A stretch of DNA of 64,000 nucleotides from a virus (Duplodnaviria > Caudoviricetes). Where the stretch lies: positions 30,451-94,450 of IMG/VR virus record IMGVR_UViG_3300020049_013434; one strand, written 5' to 3'. The notes beneath the pieces are model-generated. The model saw only the letters and a list, made by a program, of their open reading frames with translations, was not told where the DNA came from and searched no databases. Shown here in pieces: positions 38,790 through 57,102 of this stretch (its first letter is position 1; every line of letters starts with the position of its first letter). The position numbers were made by a program, and so were the translations under genes.

Positions 38790-40009
38790 TAGCCGCCTCC
38801 GTTGACCATGATATGCGATTCCATGTAGGCTCTCGTGATTTCGACTGCCTCCCTACGGGTAAAGCCGTTGCGCATGAGCGACTCACGCATGATCCCCAGT
38901 GCCTCACACAGCAACTGGATACCGTCGTTCGCCAACTGCTTACGCTCCTCCAGGGTGGGCTCGCGAGTGGGCTCGTCGTCCTCTTCGTCACCACCCAGAT
39001 CCAACTTGTCCCAATCAATGTCATTTGCCATAACGCTTCCTTTCACTTGTTGTGTCTACACGAATGTCAGGCGGGAAAATGCTAAATAACGCTGCTGATA
39101 CTATTTGCGACCGCAACCAATGTAATCCACTCCAGAATGCGCAGATTCTTCTCGTAGGTCGTGTGGTTGTCCCAGGCTGACCCATGCTGCTCTAGGTGGT
39201 AGCTGATCTGACCAGTAGGCAGCTCTATGAAGGCGACGGGCCACTCCGGCTCTGCCGGGTCAATGCGAATGCCGGCGGAGAGTCCACACCGTCTCGCCAA
39301 AGCCATAGCCTCGTACACAAACAAGGTGCGGTTGTCGTAGTGAATTTTGTTTCCCGTCTCAAAAGCTAGTCCGTCATGATACTTCAACTCGATCAGCTTC
39401 CGCGCCAACTGAATTCTCGTCGTATCCATTTTCCCTCCGCCCTAAACAAAAGGGGCGATTCCCTCTCTCAAAGGAATGCCCCCTCTTTCGATACCGCCGC
39501 CACCAACGAACCGTATCTATCCGTATCGTCTACAGATTAGACTCATTTTACCAGATAATGCGCAGATAGTCAATTGGCAATCTGTCAACTGGGAAAACTA
39601 ATCTTCGTATAAGTCGTACTTCTCGCAAATCTTGTCCAATGCCACGTCGCCCTTGTATGTGCCAAAGCCGTTGTATGTGTTGACCTGGCGCCTATACTTC
39701 TGACCAGGTACGATCACACCCTTCTGCCGTCGCATTCTAACGATATCGCGGAGTTCTGCATAGGTAAACATGCCGTCCTCATAGCAGTTCATGATCAGCG
39801 AGTAGGCGTCACACTGGTGATTCTTGCGCGCTACGTGAACAGAGTCAGATATTATCCACATTGGTTACTCCTTATAGAACATAAACAATAGTGAGTATAT
39901 TATACTACTAGATTGGTCGAATGGGAAAAGGGTAAATGGGGAGATTGTGGTTGGAGGGGACGGCCTAGCATTCCCCGTCCGTCGTTAAGGATTATACAAA
40001 AATATTCCC

Positions 40010-40800
40010 GTGCACCCGTCACACGTCGCGCCCTACTTCCTACCCTATGCTAGTCTCCCTATCCATGCACCCCACCCTACCCTATGCCATACCATTACGT
40101 TACATTGTCTCTATCCACACGGCAACACGGCTACACGGCGACACGGCGCTATAGGTATGTCACCATTGCACGTTGCGCACACTATGATACATTGCGCTAT
40201 GTATACAGTGTTGCCTATACCATGCTCCTCCTGTTGCCCTACACACCACGCTACATATACACCTCTGCATACACCCGTATATAGGGCACGGCGCTAGGGC
40301 ACGGCGCTAGGGCACGCCATACACCCATATATATAGAGCATGACATACACCACTACACACTTGTACCATGCTATCCATACACCTATGCTATACCATGTAC
40401 ACCACACTATATATATATAGTGTGCTCTCTACCGTATACAATACACACCTGTACACTGTGCTCTATACACGAGTACACACTATACTACATATATAGTACC
40501 CTATGCAGTCATACCACTACACTGGTACACACCTATGCATACAGTACCATGATACAAGCTAGCTGTTTTCCAGTGTACAATCATAGCACTATATACTAGA
40601 CGAAGCACCGTGGTACGTTGTCAGTGTATGAATGTAGTATCATATAATAGCTACTTGTTTTGTGCACTGGTAGCTACCCACCGTTACACAACTACACCTG
40701 TATACACCTGTCTATGCACACCCCATACACCCTACTATGATACTAACATTTTATACGCTAGCGCCTAGTTTATGTCAGTATACCGGTGTACGGCACACGA
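40010..40800. repeat. Low-complexity purine-pyrimidine alternating tract with a 13-bp tandem repeat
   Basis: Dense in TACAC/TATAC/CTATG; TAGGGCACGGCGC x2.6 at 40282-40316; palindrome CACACTATATATATATAGTGTG at 40403-40424. Confidence 0.7.
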
Positions 40801-40825
40801 GTTTTACAAACCCTGTCAAAAGCCC

Positions 40826-40854
40826 TTGACACCGTGTATCACGTATGGTACCAT
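40826..40854 (+). promoter_or_regulatory. Strong sigma70 promoter opening the early arm
   Basis: TTGACA-17-TACCAT with extended -10 TG. Confidence 0.8.
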
Positions 40855-40860
40855 GTAGCT

Positions 40861-41490
40861 ACGAACGAAACAAAACGAATAGCCAAAAGCGAATATCCCC
40901 CCCGTCTGCGGGCACCTGCGTTAGTGGTGTAATAGGTCTATATGCTTAAGGCTATAGTTGCGCTAGTTGCGTATATCCAAATTTGCACCTAACCGTGCAT
41001 ACCACTTGACAGGTATATGTCATGTCGTTTCCGTACTTTTGCGCTATGCGCTGTAGTAGCACTTTTACAACATAGTCCTATGCGGTTTTCAAGCCGCAAT
41101 TACCCTGTCTAGCTATGCCTATGGAATTTCCTATATAGGCGGCGCTAGAAGTGGGTAAAAGTCAAGCTTGCACGTTTGCGAGTTGTGTTTAGGGAGTTTG
41201 CCCAACAAACAACCTATGATCGACTTGCGGCTGTTGCCATTAGTGCGCTTGGCGTGGGCAAATAACGCCAGATCACCGACCTATGCGGTTCGCATGGGTG
41301 GGCGGATAGTCTAGGCAGTAGGGCCACGATCCATAACTTGCTATAGTAGTATGCTATAGCCGTTGGGGAGCTATTGACTGCGTGATTTATCTAGTACACA
41401 AGATCTGGAAAGCATTACCATAGCATAGCTGTGCTATGTTATCTCAAACCAGGGTATAGGTGGTATATCCTCCTCCTACCTATACCATAC
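40861..41490 (+). ncRNA. Large structured non-coding RNA candidate
   Basis: No ORF of 60 aa or more over ~600 nt; many hairpins; long-range pairing of 40878-40900 with 41365-41375. Confidence 0.6.
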
Positions 41491-41540
41491 TTTGCGATAA
41501 TATATGTACGATACACACAATTTCTTTAGAGGATAAAGCT

Positions 41541-41837
41541 ATGTTTTCAGTCAAAAAAGATTGTATTGCCAAGTTTGTATCTGAACCTAAGTTGCCATTT
41601 GATTTTTACAAAATGCTTGGCTTGTCAGTGTTGGGATCAGCAATGTCTATCGCTTGTCCTTTCCTATCATTGCCATTCTACGTTTGGCAGTTTATCACCT
41701 ATATGTCACTGATTACTGCTTGGCTGATCTACAAATCTTGGCAAGTTGACGTAAAACTTCACCGTTACAACTTGCGTCAAATGCTGGAGTTTGCCCAAAA
41801 GCACCCAGATTACATTGCTAAGCTTATGGGGAAATAA
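41541..41837 (+). CDS. Small membrane protein
   Basis: GAGGA RBS; two TM segments. Confidence 0.6.
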   Translation: MFSVKKDCIAKFVSEPKLPFDFYKMLGLSVLGSAMSIACPFLSLPFYVWQFITYMSLITAWLIYKSWQVDVKLHRYNLRQMLEFAQKHPDYIAKLMGK

Positions 41838-41950
41838 TTGCTCCATACGTGGGGATAGGTGTAACTTCCTCCTATTACACTTATCCGTCTACGTTTGTAT
41901 CAATTTTGGTACAATCTATCTACGTCTGACTATTTTTCTGGAGAAAAACT

Positions 41951-43000
41951 ATGTCTACCCAAACTACAACCAAAGTTACTGCTATGGTCGGTCTGAACGC
42001 CTTCTACTATCGTGAGAATGCTCTTTCTGACTGGAAACCGCTTGACGCTGCCAAAGTGGGCGACTATGTCGCTATGGGCTATAAAGTCAAATTTCGTGGT
42101 GAGAAAGACGGTAAGCCCTTTGATAGCTATATGGGCAAAGAGCGCGAGATCAATTCTGTCAAGTCGTCTAATTACGACGAAAAGATCGGCAGCTTTGGTG
42201 TGAACTATGCCGATACCTATGAACTCAAGTTCGGCAAAACCTTGTCTAGTCGTAAGACGACGATCAATGTCTCCGGTCGCGATCTTCGTGCCAAGTTGCG
42301 TGATCTCTTTGCCAAGTCGAACAAAGGGTTTATTGTCAACGATATCGTCATTCGCCCGTCCGCCTTTGACGCAACCGACAACCGCAAGCAGGAAGTTGAT
42401 CCTATTGTCAACTCCACTCGCACCGATGAGCAAGTTGCTGCTGCTGGCGCTTGGCAAGTCACCGCTTACTTTGAAGGCACCTGGACTTGGTTCAAAGTGC
42501 AACGCAATGGCGTGGAAATGACTGACTATGCCCAGATCGGCGCTTACATTCCTGAGTGGGGCAAGCTTTTCAAAGAAACGTTTGACGGTCGCGGCTTGAA
42601 GTTTAGCGATAAGCGCAAGGCGTGGAAATTTGAGAAGGTCGTTTCTACCAGTGCTTTGACTGCCTTCTTTAGTCTGAAGTCGTCCGGCGCCCCTATGGGT
42701 GATACTGGCAAAGAGCAAGCTATCGTCAAGACTGAATCCGCTGCTTTGGGCGACTGTGCCACTCACGGCGACGTTGTGAGCAAGATCGAGTATGTTGATC
42801 CTGTCTATCAAAATCATGCACCGTTGCCAGTCAAGGAAGTTGCCACTGTCGCCGCTGAAGTTGCTCCTATCGCTACTCCTGAAATTTCCGTCAAAGAACA
42901 GATTGCGATTCTCTACCGCAAGCTTGACAATGTCCAAAGTGAAAAGCTGGCTGAAATGTATATGTCACAGATTGCCAAGCTTGAAGCTATCGCCGCCTAA
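41951..43000 (+). CDS. Hypothetical early protein (349 aa)
   Basis: GGAGA RBS; strongly biased codons; followed by a terminator. Confidence 0.75.
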   Translation: MSTQTTTKVTAMVGLNAFYYRENALSDWKPLDAAKVGDYVAMGYKVKFRGEKDGKPFDSYMGKEREINSVKSSNYDEKIGSFGVNYADTYELKFGKTLSSRKTTINVSGRDLRAKLRDLFAKSNKGFIVNDIVIRPSAFDATDNRKQEVDPIVNSTRTDEQVAAAGAWQVTAYFEGTWTWFKVQRNGVEMTDYAQIGAYIPEWGKLFKETFDGRGLKFSDKRKAWKFEKVVSTSALTAFFSLKSSGAPMGDTGKEQAIVKTESAALGDCATHGDVVSKIEYVDPVYQNHAPLPVKEVATVAAEVAPIATPEISVKEQIAILYRKLDNVQSEKLAEMYMSQIAKLEAIAA

Positions 43001-43037
43001 CTCCTTCCCTGCTCTTACAACCTAATCGTTAGTAAAG

Positions 43038-43073
43038 ACACCTACTAGGTTCACAGCCTGGTAGGTGTTTTTT
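43038..43073 (+). terminator. Intrinsic terminator
   Basis: ACACCTACTAGG...CCTGGTAGGTGT followed by a T-run. Confidence 0.75.
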
Positions 43074-43099
43074 GTTACCCAAAATTCTGGAGGTCTGCT

Positions 43100-43237
43100 A
43101 TGTATAAATTCGTCTTTTCCAACGGCCGTGTCATTGTCACCAACAATAAGCACTTACCCAAACGTCTGGGAATTTCGGTCAAGCTTGTCTTTATCCGCTC
43201 TTCCATTACCGGCAAATTCGTCAAGCTTGGCAACTGA
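43100..43237 (+). CDS. Small basic protein (45 aa)
   Basis: GGAGG RBS; MYKFVFSNGR...RSSITGKFVKLGN. Confidence 0.5.
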   Translation: MYKFVFSNGRVIVTNNKHLPKRLGISVKLVFIRSSITGKFVKLGN

Positions 43238-44263
43238 CAATTTTCTGCTCTACTGTGTATGTCCGCGCCTTGTTTATACTGGAGAAAATTCTATGTTAGC
43301 CTATCTACGCGCTGTTACTGTTATCGTGATATACTTTTGCGCAGTATATCAAATCACCTTGTCCGTTGGCGATATTCTCGAGGCTGCCCATGCCTTTATC
43401 AAGCGCCGGCTGTTTAAGCGCCCGTCTTACTACAGTCTGATCGTTATCAAAAAGTAGGTGACCTATGCCATTCCTCACGCTGTTTACACTATCGATTTTC
43501 GCCTCTATCGTCTCACGTCAAGCCTTCGCTGCCCTCACCATTATCCTATCCGTTTTTCTGTTCAATGCCTTCCTTGCCCTTGTGTGTGGCTCTATCGTGC
43601 TGAAAGTTGCTTTCTTGCTCATGTTCTTCTAGCCCTCGCGCGTATAGTTCCAAGCCACCGCTTTGACAACCTAAAAGAGATCGGATCTTGTTGGGCTAGG
43701 AGGTCCGATCTCTTGCAAAAATAAATAAATACATTTTTACTTTAGTGTCGTATCCTGTCTTAAATAGACGGCAAGCTTTTTGTGCAGAATAGAAAATCAA
43801 CTGCGCTTTTAGAAGTGTAGTCCATGACAAAGCCAAAGTTTTTCTTTTTTTTCTTTTCGCAAGAGATCGGCGCTTGGTCGCGCCTAAGACTTCCCTGCTC
43901 TTACTCCACCTCCTTTATCTCTAACTATGCAACAGCATAAAACTTGTAACAGCGTCCGCAGGCTCCAGTGCGCAGAAGAATCTCACACAACAGACTTTTT
44001 ACAACTGCTTTATCTTATAGAAGTTTTAATCTTCATAGTATGCATGGAGATCCTGTGATGCTGCGCCCATGCATGCGAACGTGAGGACGTGAGTGCGTGG
44101 GCATAAAGTTGGGTGACAGAGAGAACGACTTTGTCTCTCTTCACTCCTATGCACATACACCAACCTAATCATTTTGTTTTATCCTTCTCTTTAGAGAGAG
44201 GTTTAAATCTTTGAATTTATGCCCAAAATACACTGGAGCCGATTGTCTACTATATGGTGTATC

Positions 44264-44348
44264 ATAAAACGTTTGAATTTTATACTCACTCAATAATTCA
44301 AACGTTTTATTTTTCCTACTTGATAAGTTTGAATTATTATGATATACT
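44264..44348 (+). promoter_or_regulatory. 16-bp inverted repeat plus promoter upstream of the helicase (operator or origin)
   Basis: ATAAAACGTTTGAATT-N15-AATTCAAACGTTTTAT; TTTTCCTAC-TTGATA-17-TATACT. Confidence 0.6.
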
Positions 44349-44388
44349 GCATTCTACAGTGGGTGTTAATTTTTAGAAAGAGTATTCT

Positions 44389-45423: not shown

Positions 45424-45807
45424 GCATGAAAACTATGGAAAGTATTCCCTTGAAAGACGTTGTCAACTATCAAGCGCCAACAAAACCAGAAGCCCTCCAG
45501 AAGCTTGGCGAAGCCGCACAAGACCTCGCCGCTGCCTATACTGAACACTACGGTAAACCGCCGTTTGAAATCACCTACATGTGCGATTTGTGCGAAGGCT
45601 CCAACTACGTTCTGGAAGAAGCTGCCATGCGCATGATTGACCGCTCCTGGCAATTCCTTATCCGCCACGAGTCATTCCTCGTGCGCAAAGAGCTGGCAAA
45701 AGTTATCGAAGTATCAATGGCGATCATTCACCGCAACTACTACGCCACAGCCAAGAAGAAGTAGAAATGGTGGGCTAAAGCCAGAAAGTGGTACGCCTAG
45801 CCCACCA

Positions 45808-45845
45808 TTTTCCCACTTGACACTTTTAGCTGCATACGGTAAAGT
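45808..45845 (+). promoter_or_regulatory. Early promoter
   Basis: TTTTCCCAC-TTGACA-17-TAAAGT. Confidence 0.75.
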
Positions 45846-47221
45846 ATGTGTATCCGTTTATGTTTAGAAGAAAGGAACGACAATGACAAACGATAAAGCG
45901 CTTGTGCTTATCAACGTGCCACATGCCCCATTCACGGAAGAGCCGCTTTTCCCCGACGAGGCATTTGTCTTTACCGACGAGAAAAGCCTGTCAATTTTCG
46001 TCAAGGCTCGCTATAAGGTGACTGATGAGCATGTGGCTGTGCTGTTGATCGAGCAAAATCTTCGCCTCCCTGGTAGATCAATTTTTCTCGATTACTGCTA
46101 CGTTAACCTGAAAAGATAGATAGAAAGGAATAGCCATGGATCTCTACGTTTATCCGATTCAGAATAATTTTGAGGTAGGCGATAAAGTGATTGACAAAAC
46201 GGCCGGCGCTAATGGTTGGCCCGACGTTCGCGGCGAAGTAATCGAAGTGGACGGTTCTCACGTTCATGTGCGCTATAACAGCGGAACCGAGCGCTGGAAA
46301 ATGCACATTCACCTTGAGTTAGAAAAGTAGAAAGGACTATCAAGTGAGCAAAGAAGAAAAGATACAGCAACTAGAGGGTTACAAGTCGCATATCTTCGAC
46401 GGTGAACGTTGGAAGAAAATCGCAGGTTACGAAGTGGGCGAAGACGGCATTCTCCTCAATGCGCCTTGCGCTTGCAGTCAATGTCAAGAGGAAGGTCTTC
46501 AGCCAGGGCATGTGTATTGCAGTAATGTTCCCGCCGAACTATTGCAAGCGCAGAAGGAAGATCGGATTGTCGCCAACCTAGACAACTCCGGTTGGTACTG
46601 GACAGTTGCGTAATTTAATCAAGCCGACCGCACCGGATTGTGCGGAGAAAGAACAATCATCATGATGAGTGAAGTTGTAACCTACACAGTCGCTTACAGC
46701 ATCGGGATAACACCCGATAACCCAACAGGGATGCATATTTAGGAGGTTGTCATGTTCGACGAATTGTTGGCTCGCTTAGGTCGTCGCGGTGTAGAATGTA
46801 TCAAGCGCTGGAGCACTCGCCAGCCAATTGAGACGGTGCAAGTCGAAGTAATTGCCGTCCTGGCTTACTGTGCAGAGCATGGCGCTAGCAAACTTAGCGA
46901 GGCTTGGTCAATGGACCAATTCATGTTCTGGATGGCGCTGAGCCCCGCTGACGTGTTTGTGTACGAATATGTGATTGACCGACATTTGCAGGAGGCATAA
47001 TGGAACAAGACGCCATGTCATTGCTGTACGAGGAGAGTGGCGAAATCACAATCGTCGCCATTTCATTCTTCACGGAAAACCTGATCAACTACGCCAAAGA
47101 TAACTTCGACGTGACACCTGAGCAATTAGAGGAGCTGGAAGTCTATTTCACTGTAGAAATCAACAGCTTCACCAGTCTGCACATTCACACCGCACCGTTT
47201 GTCTAGTTTTTTTTCTTAGTA

Positions 47222-47259
47222 TTTTCCCGATTGACAACAATGATAGTATATGATAGTAT
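47222..47259 (+). promoter_or_regulatory. Early promoter
   Basis: TTTTCCCGA-TTGACA-17-TAGTAT. Confidence 0.75.
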
Positions 47260-47549
47260 AGTTTTCATGTACTACCAACCGTGGTTGTGCATGAATCGTT
47301 TGTACACAATGAGGAGGATGTATGGCAAAGAACACTAATTACGACATACTGGACGAGATCTTGAAGAAAGCCGACGACGGCGAAGAGCTCACTACCGAAG
47401 AATTCGCTATCGCCAACGACAGTTTTCGCCGGCAGGACGCAGAGATAAAGCGATTGCTCGACGAAAAGCGCGACTCTGACGCAAAGAAATACTCGAAATG
47501 GTAGTGTCCTAGCTTGTGAACTGGTAGTATAGTTTTCATGTACTACCAA
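47254..47549 (+). repeat. 25-bp direct repeat flanking a 60-aa gene
   Basis: TAGTATAGTTTTCATGTACTACCAA at 47254-47278 and 47525-47549. Confidence 0.85.
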
Positions 47550-55820: not shown

Positions 55821-55858
55821 TTTTCCCACTTGACGACATTGTCCTATCATGCTAGAAT
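55821..55858 (+). promoter_or_regulatory. Early promoter
   Basis: TTTTCCCAC-TTGACG-17-TAGAAT. Confidence 0.75.
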
Positions 55859-56625: not shown

Positions 56626-57102
56626 ATGAGCGACATAACTTTGTCTGTGCGCCACCGTGAAGGCGGCGAGTCTGAGCAGATTGAATTAACCAAGGGCTAC
56701 AGTGCCGGCGACATTGAGGAAATGGCGCTGAGTCAGCTTGGGCTGGAGGAGAACGACGGTATTTTCCTCGTCTACACAATCGAGGAGATTAACGGAGAGG
56801 GCTACGAATCGGAAGCTGACCCTTCCACAATTGCCGAGCTACTGCGTCACGATAACGGCCCAGTCACAGCGGCGCTTGAGGAATACCACCGGGACCCGAA
56901 GCAGGCGCTGATCCTCTTGCGGTGCGGCTACACGGTCTGGAAAGACTTCGGGGAGTTAGTTGACAACTACCTGGAGGATTATGACTTGCCCTACGAGATC
57001 ATGCAGTCAATTGACGCCGACAAGCTGGAGAAATATATTCGCAAGGATCGCACGTTTGTCGAATCGCCAAGTACCGGCGAGTTAGTAGAATTTCACCGAT
57101 AA
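56626..57102 (+). CDS. ArdA-like acidic antirestriction candidate
   Basis: Very acidic; C-terminal DFGELVDNYL..DLPYEIMQSIDADKLEKYI..TFVE resembles ArdA domain 3. Confidence 0.5.
   Translation: MSDITLSVRHREGGESEQIELTKGYSAGDIEEMALSQLGLEENDGIFLVYTIEEINGEGYESEADPSTIAELLRHDNGPVTAALEEYHRDPKQALILLRCGYTVWKDFGELVDNYLEDYDLPYEIMQSIDADKLEKYIRKDRTFVESPSTGELVEFHR

Follow-up and report, generated by a model that had tools for sequence, protein, structure and literature searches.

A conserved structured RNA outside the Rfam families directly behind an early promoter of a tailed phage

What lies between the early promoter and the first rightward gene of this phage, where several hundred nucleotides contain no open reading frame (ORF), and in what form would it act? 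The DNA analysed here (the window, 64,000 nt) corresponds to bases 30451-94450 of the 94,450-bp IMG/VR virus record IMGVR_UViG_3300020049_013434, and coordinates refer to the window unless stated otherwise. Since genes for a terminase, a thymidylate synthase and a primase/helicase-type ATPase were detected in the genome with Pfam/PHROGs, the phage was assigned as tailed. Leftward genes start at 69,879 and rightward genes at 71,991 (genome coordinates), and therefore the gap between them (39862-41540 in the window) is the sole point at which the two arms diverge. This gap is 1.68 kb long and ORF-free; the region of interest, 40826-41490, forms its right half and a helicase gene is located 2.9 kb downstream of it. 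CheckV estimates the record to be 73% complete; its two ends overlap by 121 bp and may have arisen artificially during assembly. Within the phage group, one JGI contig measures 102,829 bp, compared with the 94,450 bp of the IMG/VR record. At least part of the stretch 40000-42000 is contained in 20 of the 24 sequencing runs listed (12 studies), with wastewater, activated sludge, anaerobic digester and freshwater as source habitats.

Exact-protein look-ups of the two downstream genes in Logan and JGI assemblies retrieved 12 contigs of strain-level relatives (L003-L006 and L008-L015), and a HMMER search with the neighbouring 349-aa protein retrieved distant relatives at 37-40% identity. Other searches were negative. 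The gap gave no blastn match in 50,697 phage records, neither the 349-aa protein nor the helicase retrieved relatives when used as single queries against IMG/VR, and the sole match of a terminase scan of IMG/VR (28% identity) was to the intein part of the terminase. Protein-alignment scans of IMG/VR and JGI metagenomes likewise gave no relatives, and a 24-mer of the long arm described below had 0 matches in IMG/VR. The pattern CAAATAACGC-N40-70-GTAGGGCC was found at 125 loci, all of them chance matches as judged by covariance model R1.

The strain contigs are mosaic. They lack the repeat-rich left half of the gap (about 40350-40730) or carry other DNA in its place, and the block from 40729 rightward is retained. 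The first 124 nt of the putative RNA occur as two alleles that are not alignable to each other; L009, L010, L012 and L014 carry a different 5' segment, with no blastn match, and retain the rest of the RNA. Identity between strains is 86-100% in the core (40985-41300), 94-100% in the terminal helix and just 72-86% in the segment 41301-41428, where pairing is nevertheless kept. The first gene has a second allele of 67% amino acid identity in otherwise near-identical strains, in which the RNA core remains 86-97% identical. First-gene alleles are shuffled independently of the two RNA 5' alleles, and recombination at this locus therefore proceeds module by module. The structured RNA is single-copy in the genome.

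A preliminary description of this DNA had proposed a strong promoter followed by a large structured RNA, and the promoter was confirmed. The sigma-70-type early promoter TTGACA-17-TGnTACCAT at 40826-40854 (plus strand) is near-consensus, with 10 of 12 positions matching, has an extended -10 and is the top-scoring plus-strand site of the gap; transcription would start at about 40858-40862. It is identical or improved in all strains, with TACTAT as -10 in four, and the same layout is kept in the distant contig L018 (TTGACA-18-TGnTTTAAT at 1390-1419). About 70 nt before the -35 lies a conserved upstream element, GAYACTRACATTNTATACGYT (40738-40760, plus strand), which is present in the window, L010 and L018; with L018 it is shared as a 21-nt element. 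It falls within a block of 103 nt in which L018 and the window have 71% identity, and in strains with replaced DNA to its left the conserved block starts at 40729. This element is possibly an operator or a second promoter element; its DNA pattern gave 0 viral matches and 2 genome matches, both of which were chance.

The dense pairing proposed earlier was examined by folding and by comparison. The minimum free energy (MFE) of the region has a z-score of -3.97 against shuffles on the plus strand and of -4.49 on the reverse complement; since both strands fold beyond shuffles, thermodynamics alone indicates inverted repeats, not RNA. The RNAalifold structure of alignment A2 (eight sequences) has 201 predicted pairs with 97.5% of cells paired, and at 25 of these pairs both sides have changed and still pair, several of them not as independent events because the eight sequences are recombining mosaic strains with block-wise inheritance. 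Shuffled controls gave 8.3 ± 2.0 double-change pairs, with none of the 500 shuffles reaching 25, and a slid control in which partners were shifted by 1-3 columns gave 1-4. As the RNAalifold structure came from A2 itself, the count was repeated with the MFE structure of the window sequence alone, which gave 23 double-change pairs (43 cells) versus 1-5 when slid. When L018 was included, 21 of the 51 pairs of the 3' domain were double-changed versus 8.4 ± 1.9 in shuffles and 1-4 in slid controls, in an alignment that was fitted to a covariance model and favours the structure somewhat. At the level of aligned sequences, these comparisons show that selection maintains the pairing while the sequence drifts.

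Predicted pairs include 216 G-U cells and only 10 A-C cells, and when the alignment was refolded de novo on each strand, the folding term was -184 kcal/mol for the plus strand and -157 kcal/mol for the minus strand. One pair, U41344-A41356, is changed to U-G and would read as an A-C mismatch in the opposite strand. The G-U excess and the folding energy favour a structured RNA on the plus strand, as the preliminary description had suggested from several G-U pairs. Its statement that about 600 nt lack an ORF also stands: the longest ATG/GTG/TTG ORF starting downstream of the inferred start has 48 aa, no stop-to-stop frame is common to the lineages, and indels in the relatives have lengths that are not multiples of three. 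RNA library X6 (assembled contigs) contains a contig covering 40411-41349, with equal depth over the repeat tract, which does not look transcribed, and over the leftward genes; since neighbouring DNA is covered equally, this library is silent on transcription, ends and strand.

The predicted structure (all parts on the plus strand) begins with the variable 5' domain at 40861-40984, which has an A-rich unpaired start, then small hairpins, and comprises the two alleles. It is followed by a 7-bp hairpin at 41004-41025, in which A41009-U41020 is G-C in L003 and L010, and by a second 7-bp hairpin with a UUCA loop at 41081-41098, in which G41085-C41094 is A-U in four of the eight sequences; variants of the latter hairpin were also seen in sequencing runs X6 and X10. 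The 23-bp arm UUACCC...GGGUAA with the tip GGAAUUUCC, already recognised in the preliminary description, holds at 41100-41158, with 97.5% of its cells paired and one-sided changes only. A look-alike of the arm tip in L017, with CCUGU/ACAGG for CCUAU/AUAGG, is not significant (9.9 bits, E 0.44). The next part is a three-way-junction domain (41161-41253) with a closing helix (41161-41173/41243-41253), inner helices at 41178-41185/41221-41228 and 41190-41216, and a small hairpin at 41229-41238; three double changes in its closing helix and two in an inner helix are all derived from L012.

The closed multi-branch 3' domain (41254-41421; 8 helices, 51 pairs) is supported both by the double changes counted above with L018 included and by a match of model R1 in L018. 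It contains the conserved unpaired motif CAAAUAACGC at 41260-41269. Double changes affect six pairs in the helices 41304-41319/41377-41392 and two pairs in the hairpin 41276-41302, where the previously noted stem CCUAUGCG/CGCAUGGG is retained at 41280-41298. The GCUAUAG/CUAUAGC stem from the same description corresponds to the hairpin 41340-41360 (loop UAGUAUG), in which L012 has four double changes and L018 has two. Downstream of the domain, the proposed stem GGUAUAGG/CCUAUACC was found again at 41453-41486, with a compensatory change in L018.

Other pairings did not survive comparison. The proposed global domain of about 500 nt closed by a 5'-3' helix is unsupported: the duplex 40878-40900/41365-41375 has an RNAduplex energy of -18.4 kcal/mol, no better than shuffles (mean -18.6 kcal/mol), and half of the strains have an entirely different sequence in place of its 5' partner. 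The proposed enclosing stem AGCCGCAA/UUGCGGCU is contradicted by the local hairpin 41081-41098, in which G41085A and C41094U co-vary in four sequences, and also by the helix 41178-41185/41221-41228, while the AUAGCAU/GUGCUAU stem would have to form at the expense of the terminal helix 41431-41509, which is longer. Two long-range helices in the RNAalifold structure, one joining 41033-41040 to the ribosome-binding site and one at 41043-41049/41423-41429, are also unsupported, being invariant or broken in L010. For a possible pseudoknot between CCCAA (41201-41205) and UUGGG (41363-41367), the strain changes read off the alignment do not match.

The element extends beyond the close strains. L018 represents a distant lineage whose neighbouring proteins are 37-43% identical to those of the window, and it was recognised by nhmmer with alignment A2 (E 1.3e-7 over L018:1778-1996) and by a full-length match of covariance model R1, built on the region 41252-41423 (L018:1707-1885; 27.4 bits, E 8.6e-6). 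L018 also retains the unpaired motifs CAAAUAACGC and GUAGGGCC and the UAGUAUG loop. In every contig with sufficient upstream DNA (L017, L018 and L021), the leftward genes are followed by at least 1.1 kb without an ORF, then by a small first gene and by the gene of the conserved protein. The first-gene slot is occupied by unrelated small genes (69 aa in L017, 34 aa in L018, 79 aa in L021). All four lineages with a 335-373-aa neighbour protein have an ORF-free leader of 0.55-0.68 kb, with folding z-scores of -4.0 (window), -4.1 (L018), -2.9 (L017) and -3.8 (L021). Models R2 and R3 did not recognise the leaders of L017 and L021, and these leaders are analogous in position and foldability only and are not members. 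The RNA has a narrow known distribution: it was detected in two lineages, and engineered or fresh waters are the source throughout. L021, a 2.5-kb contig (NCBI LMZU01000008.1) with the layout promoter, leader, small gene and conserved protein, had been placed, by binning, in a Microgenomates (OP11) genome recovered from an anammox reactor (PMC4821891); given that the contig is only 2.5 kb long, this binning is weak host evidence.

In each of the four lineages the leader has the 349-aa protein (41951-43000) as its neighbour. This protein had no Pfam, PHROG or PDB sequence match and no usable Atlas match, and its AlphaFold model (mean pLDDT 66.6) gave no convincing fold match with Foldseek or VIA-align. 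The model predicts repeated beta-beta-beta-alpha units and a C-terminal helical hairpin.

Comparison with known RNAs gave no family assignment. With gathering thresholds, cmscan against Rfam 15 had 0 matches in the whole window, and a scan of 40700-41950 with E up to 5 returned only a chance mir-92 match outside the element. Since no Rfam family matches, the "new class" of the preliminary description is a fair one. Its statement that signatures of tmRNA, RNase P and group I/II introns are absent agrees with the lack of Rfam matches and with ARAGORN, by which neither tRNA nor tmRNA genes were detected in the 64-kb window. HEARO (the IscB guide RNA) and OLE had no Rfam match either, and comparison of the ten flanking ORFs with Pfam/PHROGs gave no interrupted host gene, reverse transcriptase, IscB or TnpB.

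Likenesses to RNAs of known role are partial. The HK022 put RNAs, which are about 70 nt long with two stems, follow early promoters, alter RNA polymerase elongation and allow read-through of terminators. Like them, the present element is structured and immediately follows an early promoter, but it is about ten times larger and has another architecture, and terminator-like sites downstream are at chance level. ColE1 RNA II is a structured, promoter-driven RNA of about 550 nt next to replication functions, and the element resembles it in size, in being promoter-driven, in its place near replication functions and in its variable 5' and retained 3' part; in contrast to RNA II, no antisense RNA promoter was found, nor any similarity.

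The preliminary description also considered a distant relationship to GOLLD and ROOL, large ornate RNAs that are often found in phages and prophages (PMC5737381, PMC12286853). The element shares with them a length of several hundred nucleotides, a multi-branched and covariation-supported structure and a phage location. It differs in that it matches no Rfam model, has no tRNA genes nearby, which are frequent neighbours of GOLLD and ROOL, and lies directly behind an early promoter as an operon leader, and the proposed relationship is not supported. Vibrio phage ICP1 is reported to have an abundant non-coding transcript of about 800 nt, seen by RNA-seq, from a gap of about 1 kb without ORFs (PMC7567579), and lncRNAs were found by RNA-seq in staphylococcal phage K (PMC9241854). 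The present element would be similar by description, as a predicted large non-coding RNA from an ORF-free gap of a lytic phage. For ICP1 and phage K a transcript was seen and the sections drawn on here describe no conserved structure, whereas here the structure was found by comparison alone. By size, complexity and origin the element belongs with the large structured phage RNAs of the GOLLD, ROOL and ICP1 800-nt type. It is outside every Rfam family and set apart by its position directly behind the early promoter.

The RNA is predicted to end in a long interrupted terminal helix at 41431-41509 (plus strand), composed of segments of 13, 4 and 11 bp and capped by the C/U-rich loop UCCUCCUCC of 12 nt. 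This helix has 28 bp in total, a z-score of -3.94 and its end 31 nt before the first start codon. In L018 the terminal helix has another sequence and the same architecture (z -5.26), with a compensatory change from G-C to C-G in the inner stem. The first gene of the arm (41541-41837, plus strand) encodes a hydrophobic protein of 98 aa that is not conserved between lineages and has no Pfam or PHROG match; judged by eye from the translation, its product is probably a membrane protein. A second helix follows this gene at 41844-41897 (plus strand), with about 20 bp, a 2-nt bulge and the C/U-rich loop CUUCCUCCUA. Its architecture recurs with compensatory stem changes at L017:4902-4955 and L018:2184-2232, and the post-gene helices of the window, L017 and L018 have z-scores of -4.8 to -6.9, although the enclosed genes are unrelated.

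In the early region of T7 and the N leader of lambda, long irregular hairpins between early cistrons are RNase III sites. Both 41431-41509 and 41844-41897 are likewise irregular helices of at least about 20 bp between cistrons, on what is presumed to be a transcript of the host polymerase. By this analogy the terminal helix 41431-41509 is a candidate double-strand-specific processing site of the RNase III type. The T7 and lambda sites are isolated hairpins, whereas here the candidate site ends a conserved structured domain of 550 nt. Flanking the first gene with long double-stranded helices would appear to be how this phage group organises its early transcript. As a separate observation, the pyrimidine-rich loops flanking the first gene in the window, L017 and L018 (UCCUCCUCC, CUUCCUCCUA, UCUCCCCAU and UUUCCCUCU) resemble anti-Shine-Dalgarno sequences; the only window hairpins of that loop type with stems of at least 11 bp are 41453-41486 and 41853-41886.

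Comparative sequence analysis indicates that the plus strand of the region, from roughly 40860 to 41510, specifies an uncatalogued structured RNA of about 650 nt that is conserved, does not code for protein and has its fold kept by compensatory changes. As to the form in which it acts, we tentatively prefer a structured RNA that derives from the leader and is released by double-strand-specific processing. Judging from the promoter and the strand asymmetry, host RNA polymerase would make the RNA at the beginning of the rightward early/replication transcript. We infer the processing step because the long irregular intercistronic helices of T7 and lambda are RNase III sites: following the T7 early parallel, the terminal helix and the matching post-gene helix would be the cutting sites of an RNase III-type enzyme, and cutting would release a free, stable structured RNA, separate from the message of the first gene. 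As a guess, the free RNA could then be a binding platform for a partner through its shape and unpaired motifs such as CAAAUAACGC. It is possible, if rather doubtful, that it acts in trans as a new class of large ornate RNA and the first product of infection, in the form of an RNA-only assembly, a decoy or scaffold for a host or phage protein, or a replication primer; an anti-defence role, as raised in the preliminary description, is a conjecture. If so, the exchangeable 5' domain would set specificity between competing phage strains.

No intrinsic terminator was found between the RNA and the first gene, and it is therefore possible that the RNA is never released. Nearly as likely as a free RNA is a long 5' leader with purely cis-acting effects, which would remain on the early message and control it through message stability, first-gene translation or polymerase elongation as with HK022 put. 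Besides the missing terminator, the distance of only 31 nt from helix end to start codon and the position directly behind the promoter, kept in every lineage, are consistent with such a leader. The loop UAUCCUC can moreover pair with GAGGAUA of the ribosome-binding site (GAGGA), and in L003-type strains, which differ on both sides, this pairing is still possible as read off the alignment. However, the loop of L018 is without the anti-Shine-Dalgarno sequence, the 3' domain is conserved between lineages and the first gene is not, and a multi-branch structure of about 550 nt with unpaired motifs far exceeds the needs of known leaders of this kind. The arm has 18 terminator-like sites versus 18.7 by chance and, given also the several further promoters, antitermination is not obviously needed. 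Transcripts also prime or open replication origins, as in ColE1 RNA II and the T4 R-loop origins, and an origin RNA with the exchangeable 5' domain as its specificity region would suit the only point of arm divergence, 2.9 kb upstream of the helicase and with repeats and an AT-rich palindrome immediately to the left; the size, promoter-driven synthesis and allelic 5' end recall RNA II. We nevertheless consider this improbable, as no antisense promoter was found in the 5' domain, the left repeat tract is swapped between strains, which is unusual for an origin, and there is no similarity to any Rfam plasmid RNA family. GC skew in the window follows the direction of transcription and therefore marks no origin.

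Two further explanations dispense with a functional RNA. Operators, a packaging site or single-stranded DNA hairpins would explain the near-equal folding z-scores of the two strands, and double changes in palindromes are symmetric and name no strand by themselves. Such a DNA-level element is very unlikely, since G-U and A-C cells are strongly asymmetric, the plus strand is favoured by 27 kcal/mol, a conserved promoter is directed into the region, and the covarying nested long-range helices 41161/41253 and 41254/41421 are unlike protein-binding palindromes. Neutral inverted repeats or hidden small protein genes without any RNA function have even less to be said for them: short ORFs of 31-48 aa are present, but no frame is conserved, compensatory changes are far above controls, and the element is kept across lineages with proteins that are just 37-43% identical.

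To our knowledge, a complex conserved fold is found in few RNAs of more than 500 nt from bacteria or phages, and those of known function are ribozymes or parts of central machines, while GOLLD, ROOL and OLE are still puzzles. The expression context of the present candidate is unusually clear, with a consensus host promoter at the start of an early operon, and natural allelic variation, in the form of two 5' domains and a fast compensatory evolution of the 3' domain, can guide experiments. Although the host is uncultured, the sigma-70-type promoter makes it probable that E. coli could serve for expressing, probing and imaging the RNA.

Several features of the surrounding DNA were also observed. 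To the left of the element (39900-40730), the plus strand of the gap is C-rich and G-poor (GC skew -0.28) and has many short repeats, including a 13-bp unit in three tandem copies (40282-40320) and four copies of ACACGGC (40118-40146), and the palindrome CACACTATATATATATAGTGTG lies at 40403-40424. Repeat tracts of similar character are present in the gaps of L017, L018 and L021, and the motif CTATAGGT / TATAGGTA is repeated throughout the gaps of these lineages. The L018 tract contains a long, near-perfect palindromic hairpin (L018:847-933) that resembles the arm 41100-41158 and scores 20.4 bits (E 0.002) with covariance model R2 on the minus strand. Lastly, a scan for sigma-70 promoters gave 30 sites on both strands versus 17.7 ± 4.6 expected. 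More near-consensus sites are found on the plus strand of the early arm, at 44320-44348, 45817-45845, 47231-47259, 55830-55858 and 57011-57039, several of them located in the ORF-poor gaps 43001-44388 and 45765-47537, which may hold further non-coding elements.
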